DNA from: Candidatus Eremiobacteria bacterium
GTDB lineage: Bacteria > Vulcanimicrobiota > Vulcanimicrobiia > Vulcanimicrobiales > Vulcanimicrobiaceae
Length of the DNA: 64,000 nt
Reading direction: 5' to 3'
Assembly (NCBI GenBank): GCA_963737065.1
Contig: CAVTRC010000001.1
Span: 1,504,001 to 1,568,000 of the forward strand
The position numbers were made by a program. This document shows positions 27,001 to 33,000 of this stretch, piece after piece (the first letter of the stretch is position 1; each line of letters begins with the position of its first letter).

Positions 27001-30000
27001 GGGCGGCGGACGGCAAGAAACGATTGCAACGTCGCTCGATCCGCGCACGCAAGCGTTGCTGCACGTCACGCTGATACAGTACGACCGCAACAGCGCACCG
27101 ACGCAAATCGTGTTTGCCGAGCGCGCGAACTTCTCGCAATCGAAATGGGTGCTCGAGAACGCGAGCTTCTACCGGTTCAATCCCGACGGGACGCTCTTAG
27201 CCGAACCGAAGGTTGCGGAGCAGCAGGTTGAACTCGGCGAGAACCCGGCGCAGATCGTCAACCGGATTCAGATGAGCGATCCCGAGCAGATGAGCCGCAA
27301 GCAAATCCGCACGATCGTGCAGTCGGGGCAACTCACGCAGCTCGAATTGCGCAAATACGTCACGACGTATCAGGAGAAGCTCGCGCAGCCGTTTGCTTGT
27401 TTCGTCTTCGTGCTGATCGCGATCCCGTACGGCATGCGCGCCGCGCGCAGCGGCGGCGGTACGAGCGTCGGCTTCGGCGTTGCCGTCGCCATCGTGTTCA
27501 TCTATTACATCGTGACCGTGGTGTTTTCGTATGTCTCCGAAGCGTTTCTGTCGCTCGCCGGGCTTTGGGCCTGGATGCCTAACGTGATCTTTACAATCGT
27601 CGGCCTGCTGCGACTTCGGCGAGCCTCGCAGGTATAGCGTAGTATGGTTGCCGACATCGTCCGCGGTACGCTCACGATTCTGATCATTATGATCGTGTCG
27701 GGCGTTATCGCGTACGTCGGCGATCGCGTCGGCCATCAAGTCGGCCGCAAGCGCTTGACGCTCTTCGGCATTCGTCCCCGCTACACGTCGACGATCGTGG
27801 CCGTCGGCACCGGCATGTTCATCGCATTGCTCGCGATGCTGATTGCGATCATCTGGTCGCAACAAGTGAAGACCGCGCTCTTCCGCATGAATCAGATCAG
27901 TCTCGAGATTTCGCAGTTGCAAGCACAGAAGAAGAATCTCGAGAGCAAAGTCAACACGGGCCAGCTGGTGGTGCGCGTCGATAGTCTCATGTTTCCGTTT
28001 TTCAAGGAAATCAAGATGGGCACGCCGGCCGACGAGCGATTGAAAGAAGTGCAAGACTTCTACCATCAAGCCGTCGTTTGGATGAATACGAACTACACGC
28101 AACTCGGATTGAAGAAATTCACGCCGCCGGCGGATTTACAGCAGAAACTCGAGCAAATCGCGGCGCAACCGAGCGTGACGGCGGTCGGCATGGATAACGA
28201 TTTACTCGTGTACATGACCGCCGATCAGAACCTCTATCGCAACGACGATATCCACTTCCAGATCAACTTGATTCCCGATTCCAAGCGCCTCAGCAAAGGT
28301 CAGAATATCGGGTACTTGCTCATTCCGGGCGGGCACAACGCGAACATCAATCTTGCGGTCGGTCAACTCATCGGAGTTGTGTCGACGGCCGCGGCTCGGT
28401 ACGGTGGATTGCCGCCGTTCGTCGTCTCGAACACACGCCTCGTGGAAGCATATCCCGCGCTTGGCGTGATGCAGCAGACGCTGGACAAGGGAAGCGGAAA
28501 CTACGCGCTCACGGCATTTGCGGCCGTTGACGTGTACCCTCATGTGGGCGGTGTGCCGATCGTCGTAACGTTGACCAAGACGAAGTGAACGGGTTCGTTC
28601 TTGGTATCGATCCCGGCACGCGCAAGGCGGGGTTTGCGATCGTCGACGGCGCGGACGGCGCGGTGATCGAGCGAGGAATCGAACCGATCGACGCGCTGCT
28701 CGCTCGCGCCAAAATACTGGTCGAGCGTCACGAAGTGGTAACGATAGCGCTTGGAGCGGGTACGAATGCTACCGCTCTGAGCGCGGCCCTGGCCCCGCTC
28801 GGAGTGCCGGTTCGACCGGTGGACGAACGGGAAACGACCCTGCGTGCTCGCTCGCTTTACTTTGCAGACAACCCGCCGCGCGGGTGGCGGCGACTCATAC
28901 CGCTTGGAATGCAAGTGCCGCCCAGACCAATCGACGATTACGCAGCGGTCCTGATCGCCCGTCGCTACCTGGCCGACGCGGGTAAGCGCAGCGATATGCT
29001 ATAACTGAAACTACCCCTCGGCGCGGTCGATAACAGGAAATACCCGCGGCGAGTGGTGTCGCGGAGTTCGGGAGGAAATCATGCGTCGCGCGGTCAGCGT
29101 GCTATCGATCGGGGCCCTCGTAGGGGCGCTCTGGTCCGCTGTTGTTCCCGCTTCCGCATACCCGGCACTCGACGCTTCATCGATGTCGCTCGCGACCGAC
29201 CTCTTCAACCGATGCTTTAGCGATCCGAACACGAGCAGTGAATCACCGCTCGGCGTCTTCGCATTCAACGTTTCGCCGACGATCGTGATCGCCGCGCAGC
29301 CCGCGGTGCTCGCGATGCCGCAGCTTTCGCTCTCGCGGCTGGCGTCGATGATCGTGACCGTGCCGGCGCCGCGCGCGCCGGGGCTCACGACGACGCCCGA
29401 CGTTGCCGCCGCGGTTCGTTCCAACACGCAGCCGACGCTGACCCTCACCTCGCCGCAACTGTCATCGCCGCAACCGGTGATCGGCTACTATCAGGATCCC
29501 GCGCCCGCGCCGACGGTCGCGCCGGAATCGTTGCGTTTCGATCTGCCGAGCGGCGATCAAAACACTTCGCTGAGTTTTAGCCCCGTATTGACGTCGGCGG
29601 CCGGCTTCGCGGCGCCTGAGATCGGCGCGGATGCGAAAGGCACCGTTCCGCAGACCAATGCCAACGTTTCGCTTCCCTTGCGCGTCGGTCACGTTCATTT
29701 AGAGACGCATGCTGATGCCGGCGAAGCGCGTTCCGACGCAATTGCGTTCAAGGACACGGCGTACGGCGGCGGCGCGACGTTCGATGCGCGCATCGGCAAA
29801 CAGAAGCTCGGTCTGGATTTATCGAGCCACACCGAGCACGTGACGGTGAATCAACCGGTGTTCGATGCGGCGAGCCTCGACGGTCAGTCGAACTTCGAAC
29901 TCTCGAACAATCTTCCGGTGTTCGTGCCGGCCTATGCCGACATCAATAAGCAAACACTGTCGGCCGGTGTCGCGGTGCCGGTGAACCGGCGCTTGACGGC

Positions 30001-33000
30001 GAGCGTGCAAGTCAATGCGCAGCATTTGACCGGCGGCTACGGCGTGCAAGGTCTCTCGAACGTTGACGTCAACAACACGATCTACGGCGCGCGTCTGACG
30101 TATCAGTTAAAGGGCACGAGCGCGATCTCGCTCTCGGCGAATCAGTTCCACTTTCAGGACAATCTCATTCCGCTCAACACCTTCAATCAGACGAGCGCGA
30201 ACCTCAACTTCACCGTCAAGTTTTAAAGGACGCGTTTGAGCGTTTCGCGGCGTCTGCCGCGCGCCATCGTCGTTGCAGTGGTCGTCGTCGTGCTCGCACT
30301 GCTCGGCGTGGTGCAATGCGCGTCGGCGTCGTTCGTCGCCGAGCCGCATACGCTTCTCCGCGTTGATTCCGCGATCGTTCGGACTCGCGGTGTATGGCGC
30401 GCTCGATCGCATCGCGCCGGCTGCGTACGTTGAAGAGACGCTTGCGCAAAACGATCTTTCGCGCGGCGACCTCGACGGCGCGGAGCACTATGCGGTACGT
30501 TTGCCGGCCGGTCCGCGTCGCGACGATCTGCTGGGACGCATAGCCGCCGCGCGCGGCCAGGCGAAGCTTGCGCGCGAATATTATTTTGCCGCACCGGATT
30601 TCGACCGGATGCAAAGCGCGATTGCAGAGCTCGCGAAAAGCGATCCGGCCGGTGCGTACGAGCTCGAAATGCGGTTCGGTGCGCGCCTTGCGTCGCTGCG
30701 AACGCATCCTGATGCGCTCGCCGAATCGTACTTTATTGCGGGACAGTTAGCCGATGCGATGTCGCGCCGTGGCCTATCGTTGCACGATTACGAAGCGGCG
30801 CTCGCGCTCGCGCCGTTCGATATGAAGTATCTCTTGAACGCAGCGAACGAAGCGATCGCGCTCGGTGCGTACGACAAGGCCGGCCGGTATTTCGTTCGTT
30901 GTCTCAATATCGATCCGGTGAGCCGCGACTGTCTGCGTGGACGGGAGAAATTGCGCACGAGGCCGCGATGAAGGTCGGGATCGATGCGCAGCTGATGGTC
31001 GGCACGGCGACGGGCATCGGTGAATACGTCCGCGGATTGATCGCCGCGTTGCGCGATGCGGGCGCGGCCGTCGTCGAACTCTCGGAGCCGAAACTCGATC
31101 CGTGGCGCTTCGACCGGCGCGTGATATGGGATCAGGTTTTGCTGCCGCAGCGCGCGCGCGCGGAGGCGGTCGACGTGCTGCATTGCGCGTCGGGAACGAT
31201 TCCGCTTACCGCCGCGATGCCGGTCGTTGCGACGGTGCACGATGTTGCATGGCTACGCGTGCAATCGCACGCGCGTCCGTACGCGCGATATTACTTCGGA
31301 AAGTTTTCCGTCGACCGCTATCGCCGCGCGCAAGCCATTGCCGTCGATTCGGAGTTCTCGCGCCGCGAACTGCTCGACGTCGTCCCCGGCATTGATCCCG
31401 AGCGAGTGCGCGTCGTGTACCCCGGCGTCGCGCAAGATTATTGCACGCTCGAACGCCGGCGCGGCGACGGACGGACGATTCTCGTCGTCGGCACCGTTGA
31501 ACGGCGTAAGAACTTGCAGTTCCTCATCGAGGCGTTGCCCGAACTTCCCAGTGCGCGGATCGTTTCGGTCGGTCCACCGACGACGTATCGAGATGAATGC
31601 GCGGCGCGCGCGGCCGAATTACGCGTGGGCGATCGGGTGGAATTTCGCGGGTACGTTGCGCGTGAAGAGTTGTTGAAATTATACGCCACGTGCGCGGTCG
31701 TCGCGATGCCGTCGCGATACGAAGGGTTCGGCTACGGCGCGGCGCAAGCGCTTTGCGCGGGAACGCCCGTCATCGCCGCCGATCGAGCGTCGCTTCCGGA
31801 AATCGTCGACGGCGATGCGCTCGTGCTGCCGCTCGATGACCTCGCCGCGTGGATCGACGCCTTGCGTTCGGCACTCGCCGGTGATGCAGACGAACGGGCG
31901 CGTGAAGTGCGTCCGCGGGCGCGTCGCGCGCTTCGCGTGGCCGAAGAGCGCGGGTAATATGATCGCCGTATACGAAATGGCGGCTGCATCATGATCGATC
32001 GTGCGCGCGCGCTTCTCGACTCGTCGCTCGTCTGGAACAACCACACCTGTCTTCCGCTTCGGCCCGACGCCTATGACGTTTTTCGAACAGATCGAACGCG
32101 AACGCACAGCCGGCATCGACGTTACGAGCATTAACGTCGGATTCGGGCCGCAGTCACTCGAGAGTCACGTCCGCGTGCTCGCCGGAATGCGCGACTGGTT
32201 CGCTCAGCGTAGCGATCGTTACGTCGTCGTCGATTGCGTTGCGGACATCGACGCCGCGCGCAACGCCGGAAAGCTCGCCGTGCATTTCGACGTCGAAGGA
32301 ATGGCGATTCTCGACGACGGCAATCCGGGCATCGTTGCGATGTTACGCGATCTCGGCGTTCGTTGGATCTCGATCGCGTACAATCGCAACAACGCGATCG
32401 GCGGCGGGTGCTACGATGACGATCCGGGATTGACGGCGTACGGGCGCAGCGTGCTGCGCGAGGTGCGTCGCGCCGGGATGCTCATCTGCTGTTCGCATAC
32501 CGGTCATCGCACCGCGCGTGCGGTGCTCGATGAGGCGGATGGGCCGGTGATTTTCTCGCACTCCAACTGCAGCGCCGTCTATCCGCATCCGCGCAACATC
32601 GCCGACGATTTGCTGCGTGCGTGCGCGCAAACCGGGGGCGTCGTCGGCATCAACGGAATCGGCCCGTTTCTCGACGCCGGCGACGACGGGCTCGTCGAGG
32701 CGTTCGTGCGTCACGTGGACCACGCGGTGCAGGTTGCAGGACCCAATCACGTCGGCATCGCGCTCGACTTTTGCTACGACCAGGCGGAGCTCGCGAAGTA
32801 CATCCGCACGATGCGCGAGACGTTTCCCGACGATGCGACCTTCTCGCGCGCGCCGAACATGATCGCGCCGGAAGCGCTCATCGACATCGTCACCGGCCTG
32901 TGCGGTCTCGGATACGATGACGAGACGATTCGCAAGATCCTCGGCGGAAATTGGCGCCGCGTTCGCGGAGACCGCCTGGGTTTTATAGGCGCCGCTGCGA

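Follow-up and report, generated by a model that had tools for sequence, protein, structure and literature searches.

A probable remnant of an OmpM/SlpA-type outer-membrane connector in a diderm soil bacterium

The window analysed here, a stretch of 64,000 nucleotides from the genome of a soil bacterium (G000; 95.3% complete, two contigs), raises the question of how the outer membrane (OM) is held to the cell wall where the gene in the place of the OM-to-cell-wall connector encodes no SLH domain. This gene, g01578 (29081..30226, + strand), lies in a conserved OM cluster on the same strand. A block for OM biogenesis (12697..22682, +; Pfam and six-frame matches) encodes BamA, three OmpH/Skp proteins, LpxD, LpxC, a FabZ-like protein, LpxA and LpxB, and LptC, LptB and LptF/G for LPS export (25055..27637, +; Pfam) form the upstream part of the cluster. 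FlgH and four PBP transpeptidases for peptidoglycan synthesis are also encoded in the genome, and these components of the diderm tool kit described in the genome-wide survey's note are confirmed. The assembly shows two possible frame breaks in other genes of the window, lpxC and a tamB-like gene.

The gene order Wzy-LptC-LptB-LptFG-DUF3084-RuvX-slot-TPR-GT4, in which g01578 fills the slot, resembles the diderm-Firmicute OM cluster, where COG4372/DUF3084 is reported as conserved and to which COG0816 (RuvX) is reported to belong (PMC5007114). Upstream of the slot are a DUF3084 membrane protein (27644..28588, +; PF11283, E 4e-27, synteny) and, directly adjacent, a RuvX/YqgF-like protein (28585..29004, +; RuvX, E 2.6e-5, below the curated cut-off; synteny). 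Conserved downstream are a TPR protein (30273..30971, +; TPR_8/TPR_2 below cut-off; synteny) and a GT4 glycosyltransferase (30899..31957, +; Glyco_trans_1_4, E 3e-25; synteny). The slot is conserved across 52 loci in three families, with identical orientation at every locus. The DUF3084 protein was considered as a tether replacement and rejected, being equally conserved beside short and long forms of the slot gene.

The ORF of g01578 (381 aa, ATG start, GC3 0.77) is a genuine gene. Its 68 database homologues (209–667 aa), all labelled 'hypothetical protein', come from Eremiobacteraeota/Aquilonibacter records, and a Pfam profile search with g01578 returns no family at E<=0.01. The N-terminus is signal-peptide-like (residues 1–26; 29081..29158, +), with M-R-R, a hydrophobic run and A-S-A; cleavage after ASA (VVPASA before the cut, YP after it) is read off the sequence and not from a prediction tool. 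Mean column identity of the signal peptide is 0.59 in 36 aligned short forms. The tail that follows (residues 27–195; 29159..29665, +) is 49% Pro/Ser/Ala/Thr and predicted to be disordered, with AF2 pLDDT <50 over residues 17–200 except in short stretches. Even-stranded OM barrels have both chain ends on the periplasmic side, and the ~170-aa tail is therefore presumably periplasmic. Across 28 short forms its mean column identity is 17%, with F46 as the only near-invariant residue. Short conserved motifs are nevertheless kept, namely R-x-F...ESPL near the N-terminus and VGYY..P.PT.AP..RFDL at ~131–160, and conservation in the motif blocks (0.48–0.56) exceeds that of the linker between them (0.35). 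Thus, the tail may bind something invisible to profile searches.

The C-terminal OM beta-sheet or barrel part (residues 196–381; 29666..30226, +) ends in NLNFTVKF, with the beta-signal NFTVKF, and has a mean column identity of 0.65 among short forms. In an AF2 model of mediocre overall quality (mean pLDDT 52), residues 202–381 form eight long strands and a small hairpin (pLDDT 60–85), which agrees with the earlier description of a 381-aa protein with a C-terminal barrel behind a disordered tail. Comparison with sections of OM barrels (VIA-align) gives Z 10–12.4 to barrels such as TamA, OmpG, V. cholerae OmpT and KdgM. As the sheet matches sections of larger barrels and not eight-stranded barrels, a closed eight-strand barrel is putative; extra strands may come from the tail, or the barrel may be shared between subunits. 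Given about eight strands, a role as general porin is unlikely.

In relatives, the same slot holds a protein of ~880–920 aa of the OmpM/SlpA type, with a signal peptide, an SLH domain (E 1e-8 to 1e-12; W and TRYE motifs recognizable in the alignment), a coiled coil and then ~750 aa with the beta-barrel. The long-form profile matches V. parvula OmpM (OmpM1, 8bys/8bym; E 7e-28 and 1e-26) and D. radiodurans SlpA (7zgx; E 3e-22), and by sequence the long forms are members of this group of SLH, coiled-coil and barrel connectors of diderm Terrabacteria. Aligned with that profile (hhalign), the short forms match only over their C-terminal ~190 aa (columns 692–911, probability 99.8, E 8e-30), beta-signal included, and their tail has no match. 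Together with the shared slot, this supports g01578 as a homologue, by both position and sequence, of the SLH-coiled-coil-barrel protein, as first suggested, and identifies it as a truncated orthologue. It retains the signal peptide, the tail and the last ~185 aa; what has gone is therefore the SLH domain together with the stalk and some three quarters of the barrel. The initial reading, a tether-porin that had shed its anchor, is right for the SLH domain but overstates what remains. Unlike OmpM (16 strands) and SlpA (28–30 strands) (PMC10628300, PMC9388160), g01578 has about eight strands, no SLH domain and no coiled coil, and neither tether nor porin function can be assumed for it.

Known tether modules were sought by six-frame profile searches over the whole genome. 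SLH has no match at E<=10, YkuD and PG_binding_1 have none, LPP has none above cut-off (best E 0.0245), and the best SPOR match has E 0.5. The one real OmpA match (C2:224941) is flanked by MotA-like and FliM-like ORFs and is therefore MotB, which bears out the survey's claim of no SLH, no Lpp and OmpA on MotB only. A single LysM match (E 1.4e-12) falls in a small protein with a membrane anchor, encoded beside lexA and divergently from it, which we take to be similar to the SOS division inhibitor YneA and not an OM protein. By these searches the genome lacks every known tether family tested, so that OM attachment, if existing, must come from something else. Nor does g01578 itself disclose a peptidoglycan-binding module, which had been considered possible in its N-terminal part: neither SLH nor another Pfam family is found at E<=10 in 36/36 short-form members.

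The distribution of the truncation was followed in 61 genomes of the family, G000 included; the tallies comprise genomes flagged unpublished (G008, G019, G021, G028, G029, G041 and G051), none of which individually supports a claim. Matches to g01578 occur in 53/61 genomes, 33 with a frame of 243–539 aa and 20 with a frame of 897–1136 aa that matches at query residues ~215–381 only. As a rule there is one match per genome, in the short or the long form and never both, and the short frame is intact in all 33 genomes, closed ones included. SLH is present in 31/61 genomes, among them all 20 long-frame and 7/33 short-frame genomes. The supposition that a tether gene hides in an unassembled part does not hold, since SLH is missing in 26/33 short-form genomes and the one-contig genome G015 lacks both SLH and a non-MotB OmpA domain, as do in total 19/30 short-clade genomes on the tree. 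Some SLH-less relatives do have tether candidates: G006 and G054 carry a ~770-aa lipoprotein ending in a C-terminal OmpA domain. An SLH lipoprotein is found in five short-clade genomes. No homologue of either lipoprotein is found in G000.

A tree built from seven neighbour genes places all 30 short forms in one clade (SH-aLRT 100), nested among long-form lineages, and the outgroup families f2 and f3 also carry long forms. This indicates a single loss within the family, a polarity that rests on the outgroup distribution and the neighbour-gene tree, not on a genome tree, and the repeated loss inside one family that had been proposed is contradicted. Truncation is repeated between families only: SLH loss is observed in f1 and f3 alone, and the sister family f3, with 12/31 genomes without SLH, has half-length forms (447–594 aa) that span long-form residues ~460–883 and have another breakpoint. 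Stepwise N-terminal truncation therefore does happen. Phylum-wide, SLH-coiled-coil proteins match in 119/121 genomes; outside the class a long-form query matches 68/69, all of the matches listed covering the SLH-coiled-coil end.

Collectively, g01578 is probably the remnant of the lineage's OmpM/SlpA-type connector, any wall attachment being achieved by other means. About half of the genera sampled from this Eremiobacterota family would descend from an ancestor in which one event deleted the SLH domain together with the coiled-coil stalk and some three quarters of the barrel. What is left of the protein would be exported and inserted by BAM via the retained beta-signal as a small beta-barrel or beta-sheet module in the OM, with about eight strands and a fast-evolving, disordered tail of ~170 residues hanging into the periplasm. 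Such a protein cannot bind the wall via SLH. A CsaB-type pyruvyl transferase, noted before and confirmed in G000, is kept in 59/61 genomes, SLH-free ones among these. CsaB produces the pyruvylated ligand that SLH domains recognize (PMC10628300); its retention in SLH-free genomes is unexplained if nothing reads this ligand, and counts against g01578 as a mere remnant.

It is very improbable that a paralogue encoding another small OM protein took the place of the long gene, or that the short gene is an annotation or assembly artefact. Only ~190 aa can be aligned, the tail shows no detectable likeness to the long form, and the window has its two possible frame breaks; however, slot and orientation are the same at every locus, the two forms exclude each other, 33 genomes have an unbroken frame, and the f3 intermediates show that stepwise truncation is real. 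That g01578 still tethers is somewhat less improbable. Its R-x-F...ESPL motif or YY..P.PT.AP..RFDL block would then dock on the wall, on a CsaB-pyruvylated polymer, or on a partner in the periplasm or inner membrane, for example the DUF3084 protein. The conserved blocks and F46, a tail probably long enough to reach the wall, the retained CsaB and the invariant DUF3084 and RuvX neighbours are consistent with this, but the tail has no fold, no Pfam match and little identity. In Alphaproteobacteria, L,D-transpeptidases join OM barrels to peptidoglycan by covalent bonds, and the N-terminal periplasmic end of g01578 could likewise be linked without a binding domain; unlike these bacteria, G000 encodes no YkuD-type L,D-transpeptidase.

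If g01578 is a remnant, the OM may be pinned by another protein or by none. Absence of a dedicated tether, the OM being held by envelope-spanning machines alone (Lpt bridge, TamB/AsmA-like proteins, flagellar L/P rings, secretins, TonB systems) in a clade tolerating a loose OM, is rather unlikely. All known tether families are missing from G000, a state common to the 19 short-clade genomes, trans-envelope systems are encoded, and Planctomycetes and Dependentiae provide precedents of LPS-OM genomes without recognizable Lpp, Pal, OmpA-type or OmpM-type tethers (Witwinowski et al., preprint 10.1101/2021.05.31.446380), a preprint whose main text, as far as available and supplements apart, has no mention of Eremiobacterota. 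Unlike in those phyla, the loss seen here is datable inside a family, with the remnant gene in place and close relatives keeping the ancestral connector. Against a tether-free OM, loss of OmpM or SlpA detaches the OM in the organisms tested (PMC10628300, PMC9388160), the persistence of a species-rich clade that has LPS and a flagellar L ring points to a stable envelope, the absence is based on profile searches, and a plausible other connector family exists.

This family, overlooked earlier, comprises stalk-domain OM proteins, with three copies in G000, one at C1:685695-687008 and two in tandem at C2:392724-394034 and C2:394176-395423, all with PF07833 (Cu_amine_oxidN1, E 1e-26 to 1e-28). The alignment shows a signal peptide, a near-invariant Cu_amine_oxidN1 domain of ~120 aa, a Pro/Thr linker of ~35 aa and a barrel of ~220 aa ending in GLGIKF. 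Possibly, though doubtfully, it tethers the OM as an undescribed system: the periplasmic domain would grip the wall or its secondary polymer, in the manner of the OmpM SLH domain, and this redundancy would have let the SLH connector decay. Stalk-domain OM proteins occur in 61/61 family genomes; in the phylum sample, full-length matches fall in f1 (32/32), f2 (1/1) and f3 (4/4), with N-domain matches only in other families among the matches listed, and SLH loss is seen only in f1 and f3. In other families of the phylum the domain precedes Ig-like domains or unassigned sequence in 13/13 proteins examined, as expected of an anchoring module. On the other hand, a wall-hydrolase domain occurs in 0/13, the gene neighbourhoods hold nothing wall-related, a single-sequence fold reaches pLDDT 33, long-form genomes carry the family alongside the SLH connector, so that the loss is not mirrored in its occurrence, and binding of PF07833 to peptidoglycan or a wall polymer finds no support in the available part of the literature, where homodimerization is the only biochemical role reported (PMC10432803).

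E. coli OmpA combines an eight-stranded barrel, a proline-rich hinge and a periplasmic wall-binding domain. Like OmpA, g01578 pairs a small barrel with a Pro-rich periplasmic extension, but it has no OmpA_C-like domain, the sole one in the genome being in MotB. The stalk-domain proteins have the OmpA layout in reversed order, with a Cu_amine_oxidN1 domain that, unlike that of OmpA, is not known to bind peptidoglycan. They are the best candidate for replacing the lost pin, and a concrete, new candidate for an undescribed tether. Of the two options left by the survey's note, untethered or undescribed tether, their presence in every family genome favours the latter. The three paralogues share ~90% identity in the periplasmic domain versus ~59% in the barrel, and the same pattern, a periplasmic domain more constrained than the barrel, is reported for SlpA (PMC9388160).

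The window starts with dnaA-dnaN-gyrB, followed by a long outer-membrane (OM) biogenesis cluster. By Pfam, this cluster comprises, in order, a DUF748/AsmA-like protein, BamA and three Skp/OmpH; LpxD, LpxC, a FabZ-like protein, LpxA and LpxB; an O-antigen-ligase-like protein, LptC, LptB and LptF/G; DUF3084, a RuvX/YqgF-like protein, g01578, a TPR protein and GT4; and finally an M19 dipeptidase and TamB-like ORFs. In diderm Firmicutes, according to PMC5007114, DUF3084 (COG4372) and YqgF-like (COG0816) proteins form an unexplained pair that is conserved in the OM cluster, and a preprint (10.1101/2021.05.31.446380) describes OmpM copies embedded in that cluster. 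The g01578 ORF (window 29081–30226, forward strand) has an ATG start, 381 codons and a GC3 of 0.77. As read from its sequence, the protein has a signal-peptide-like N-terminus and the C-terminus ...NLNFTVKF, a typical OM β-signal. It matches no Pfam family at E ≤ 0.01, including SLH and the OmpA_C-like domain (PF00691), and 68 database homologues of similar length are all named just 'hypothetical protein', in Candidatus Eremiobacteraeota or Aquilonibacter records.

Relatives of this genome (G000) carry in the same slot of the cluster either a short form like g01578 or a long form of ∼880–920 aa. Gene order (Wzy-LptC-LptB-LptFG-DUF3084-RuvX-[slot]-TPR-GT4) is preserved, to contig limits, in 52 loci: 47 from the family of G000, that of G013 (same family) and four from two other families of the class, f2 and f3, the latter being the sister family. 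A further region, from G030, matches none of the cluster genes. The RuvX-TPR distance is 1.1–1.6 kb with the short form versus 2.8–3.4 kb with the long form; it reaches 5.7 kb in G004 (locus L024) and 6.5 kb in G002 (L059), where ∼2.7 kb is not accounted for by the long form and an additional gene could fit upstream of it, after RuvX. Two long forms lie on one contig in G060. Long forms display a signal peptide, an SLH domain (residues ∼29–72; Pfam E 1e-8 to 1e-12, and recognizable W and TRYE motifs), a heptad-like segment (∼85–135) and then ∼750 residues ending in ...NFT[VI]RF. Their profile matches Veillonella parvula OmpM (8bys, E 7e-28; 8bym, E 1e-26) over SLH, stalk and the start of the barrel, and Deinococcus radiodurans SlpA (7zgx, E 3e-22) over SLH and stalk. 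The putative barrel of ∼750 aa (L023, 8667–11318; L024, L026 and L030) would have the size of the 28–30-strand SlpA barrels, which PMC10628300 states to be limited to Deinococcus-Thermus.

When 36 short and 32 long forms are compared by hhalign, short-form columns 203–393 correspond to long-form columns 692–911 (probability 99.8, E 8e-30). Thus, g01578 shares with OmpM/SlpA-type connectors a homologous C-terminal OM barrel with its β-signal (NFTVKF) and a place in the conserved OM biogenesis cluster (BamA, Skp, Lpx, Lpt), but has neither the N-terminal SLH domain, present in the long forms of the slot, nor the coiled-coil stalk between SLH and barrel. The stalk is missing from the predicted structure, where no long helix is seen, and hhalign pairs nothing in the short-form profile with the coiled-coil columns of the long forms. 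Connectors of this type are also defined as homotrimers that bind a pyruvylated wall polymer or polyaminated peptidoglycan. The proposal that g01578 has shed its peptidoglycan anchor holds for the SLH domain and understates the loss, since the coiled coil and about three-quarters of the barrel have also gone, about a quarter of the long-form barrel being retained.

The AlphaFold2 model of g01578, built on the 36-sequence short-form alignment, has a mean pLDDT of 52. Residues 1–200 are nearly all below 50, and residues 202–381 form eight long strands and a small hairpin at 60–85. A Foldseek search of the PDB gives nothing at E ≤ 0.001, just generic OM barrels; VIA-align scores of Z 10–12.4 are obtained against sections of many OM barrels (TamA, OmpG, Vibrio cholerae OmpT, KdgM). 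The short-form profile matches no PDB sequence at E ≤ 10. In the ESM Atlas, g01578 falls in unnamed or porin-like clusters only (BBP2_2, CymA, SlipAM), with a recognition score of 2047, under the usual level. The fold class is clear, whereas closure of the predicted barrel and its strand number are not. General diffusion porins have 14–18 strands and an open pore; the model has eight long strands, and Porin_4 is matched weakly by two of the 36 short forms. According to PMC10628300, 10-strand barrels are occluded.

Upstream of the barrel, the tail (residues 27–195) is 49% Pro/Ser/Ala/Thr. Mean column identity over the 36 short forms is 0.48 at residues 27–75, 0.35 at 76–130, 0.56 at 131–160 and 0.45 at 161–195, compared with 0.65 in the barrel. 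With 28 short forms that represent the entire clade, mean column identity in the tail is 17%, and F46 alone is near-invariant. The tail is disordered and fast-evolving, with short motifs and no folded domain. A divergent peptidoglycan-binding module in these N-terminal 200 residues had been suggested as a way in which an anchor might have been missed. No cryptic SLH domain is found there: Pfam at E ≤ 10 gives SLH in none of the 36 members, and hhalign aligns no part of the first 200 residues to the long-form profile.

The history of the loss was followed in a tree of LptB, LptFG, DUF3084, RuvX, GT4, LptC and Wzy, computed by maximum likelihood under LG+G4 (quick search) from 52 rows and 1919 columns and rooted on family f3. 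Built from slot-linked markers, it is a locus tree, and it covers genomes other than G019, G021, G028 and G051 (flagged unpublished), G048, G060 (locus with no marker genes) and those with no g01578 match, G013 excepted. A single clade (SH-aLRT 100) takes in all 30 short forms; it is nested within two groups of long forms, and long forms are found in f2 and f3 too. In f3, where the scan includes three genomes flagged unpublished, SLH is found in 19 of 31 genomes; the 12 others are spread over four genera. Eleven f3 genomes have a full-length slot homologue, one has a copy interrupted where the contig stops, and 18 have a 447–594-aa frame. Fifteen of these 18 frames cover long-form residues ∼450–570 to 883, and three only ∼636–883. 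SLH is absent from half of the 18 genomes and lies on a separate 531–661-aa frame in the other nine. In G149, from which alone the position is taken, the half form occupies the same slot. Given the short-form clade and these half forms with other breakpoints, the class has seen at least two truncations of the connector, each at its own point, of which a single one falls in the family of G000. The loss is therefore repeated across the class, not inside one family as the genome-wide survey's note had it. In the f3 genus g106, represented by two genomes of which one is flagged unpublished, the slot homologues are full length (870–878 aa, long-form residues 2–883 and 20–883), and Pfam finds no SLH in these genomes at E ≤ 0.01; the SLH domain may be degenerating there.

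The observation of an SLH-less g01578 in a genome with no known tether proves correct and robust. In G000, a six-frame search gives no SLH anywhere, the single OmpA-domain match is MotB, LPP fails the cut-off (best E 0.0245) and YkuD gives no match. Also missing are the SLH-porin paralogues of long-form genomes (624–735-aa frames, 531–682 aa when trimmed to a start codon), the ∼290-aa SLH lipoprotein of relatives and any homologue of the relatives' OmpA-domain proteins, apart from the domain of MotB. Both SLH and an OmpA domain beyond a MotB-sized frame (254–361 aa) are missing from 19 of the 30 short-clade genomes in the tree; the frame size stands in for MotB identity, confirmed in G000 alone. 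Five of these 19, including single-contig G015, have no OmpA domain at all. Because the absence is shared in this way, it is a property of the clade, and a tether gene hidden in the missing 5% of the G000 assembly does not account for it. Some relatives carry other envelope proteins. The SLH lipoproteins of ∼290 aa, with a lipobox and an Ala/Pro/Thr linker, occur in short-clade G009, G012, G040, G050 and G052 (L077–L081) and in long-form G048, and are possibly a Pal-like tether built from SLH. Lipoproteins of ∼770 aa with a C-terminal OmpA-like domain are encoded by the close SLH-less relatives G006 (L088, 989–3472, minus strand) and G054 (L089, 1144–3609, minus strand), and membrane-anchored OmpA-domain proteins of ∼500 aa by G009 and G044.

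A regular-expression scan of G000 yields 149 candidates, 120 lipoproteins (many spurious) and 29 proteins with a signal peptide and a β-signal. In 40 of them, chosen for Pro/Ala/Ser/Thr-rich linkers or barrel-like ends and searched with Pfam for wall-binding domains, only a stalk domain, Cu_amine_oxidN1 (PF07833), is seen; 21 of the 40 have no family. The scan for a signal peptide and a C-terminal β-signal gives three stalk-domain paralogues of 415–437 aa (L112–L114), all outside the window, at C1:685695–687008 and, in tandem, at C2:392724–394034 and C2:394176–395423. Cu_amine_oxidN1 covers residues ∼62–178 (Pfam E 1e-26 to 1e-28). An alignment that adds nine relatives from databases (mean column identity 73%) divides them into a signal peptide, an N-domain that is near-invariant, a Pro/Thr linker of ∼35 aa and ∼220 aa ending in ...GLGIKF; this end and the sequence pattern suggest that the C-terminal part is an OM barrel. 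The G000 copies share ∼90% identity in the N-domain and ∼59% in the C-terminal part. By the topology rule for even-stranded OM barrels, the N-domain would be periplasmic. The architecture would match OmpM carrying a different periplasmic head, or OmpA in reversed order.

This family is present in all 61 genomes of the family of G000. In a sample of the phylum, full-length matches come from the family of G000 (32 of 32 genomes), f2 (one of one) and f3 (four of four), and the other families have the N-domain only, among the matches listed. In the 13 other-family proteins examined, it always precedes Ig-like domains or unassigned sequence and is never fused to a wall hydrolase. A fourth G000 protein (C1:802185–803273, minus strand) shares this architecture: a signal peptide, Cu_amine_oxidN1 and apparent Ig-like repeats, read from its sequence and from Pfam-scanned relatives, with no barrel. 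Atlas clusters of the family are all from Vulcanimicrobiota. The tandem genes lie, with genes for an NTP-transferase-like protein, an MFS transporter and malate:quinone oxidoreductase, between rpsM and rpsK (L132, C2:386000–402000), and thus within the secY-adk-map ... rpsK-rpsD-rpoA cluster of G000. No wall-related gene is seen around the loci that encode stalk-domain proteins.

A tethered OM is generally regarded as essential to the stability of diderm envelopes. The survey's note left this lineage with either an untethered outer membrane or an undescribed tether, two alternatives between which sequence analysis does not decide. For the second, a class-wide and unstudied family of putative OM proteins is now available as a candidate. 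That its stalk domain may bind the cell wall is hinted at, indirectly, by PMC4137172 and PMC10432803; the latter describes a Cu_amine_oxidN1-type domain as dimerizing a secreted, cell-associated superoxide dismutase. Literature searches found no report of Cu_amine_oxidN1 linked to an OM β-barrel, nor, by titles or abstract starts, any work on tethers in the Eremiobacterota outer membrane. With rather low confidence, one may propose that class Eremiobacteria has an undescribed connector between outer membrane and cell wall, formed by OM barrels bearing Cu_amine_oxidN1 as an anchor on a Pro-rich linker. The ancestral Terrabacteria SLH connector would have become dispensable because a second connector exists, and would have undergone independent truncation, with different breakpoints, in two families, leaving whole clades, including G000, with no SLH.

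A CsaB-like pyruvyl transferase had been noted as still present, and it is indeed kept, in G000 (C1:1940785–1941612, L087, after a 486-aa multi-pass membrane ORF) and in 59 of 61 family genomes irrespective of SLH, about half of them with no SLH domain at all. As PMC10628300 has it, a pyruvylated wall polymer is the SLH ligand of non-Negativicute OmpM proteins. Either the pyruvylated polymer has another reader or the enzyme has a different role.

According to a proposal in preprint 10.1101/2021.05.31.446380, losing the OmpM-type tether was how Terrabacteria went from two membranes to one. Here, a single class offers a natural series, from full connector through half connector and stump to a total lack of SLH, in a shared genomic slot (for the half form, as seen in G149), and its genomes keep LPS, BamA and the flagellar L ring. 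Together with close relatives, this series makes it testable whether a diderm can do without a dedicated tether and, should it need one, what stands in for the ancestral tether, and the stalk-domain family provides a specific protein for testing replacement. The phylum has a cultured relative, Vulcanimicrobium alpinus (PMC9758169).

Three further features deserve mention. The only LysM domain of G000 (C1:2053871–2054020; L085, 1495–1962, minus strand) belongs to a small membrane-anchored protein encoded divergently from lexA, an arrangement known from YneA, the SOS cell-division inhibitor of Bacillus. LpxC seems to be split between window 18576–19427, a 283-aa ORF covering Pfam positions 41–267, and 18631–18759, with positions 2–43 found just upstream in a different frame; this may reflect an assembly indel or a genuine frameshift. 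Finally, the AsmA/DUF748-like ORF (window 33054–34523) and the TamB-like ORF (34384–36765) share ∼140 nt, read in different frames, and may be a single TamB-like gene broken by a frame change.
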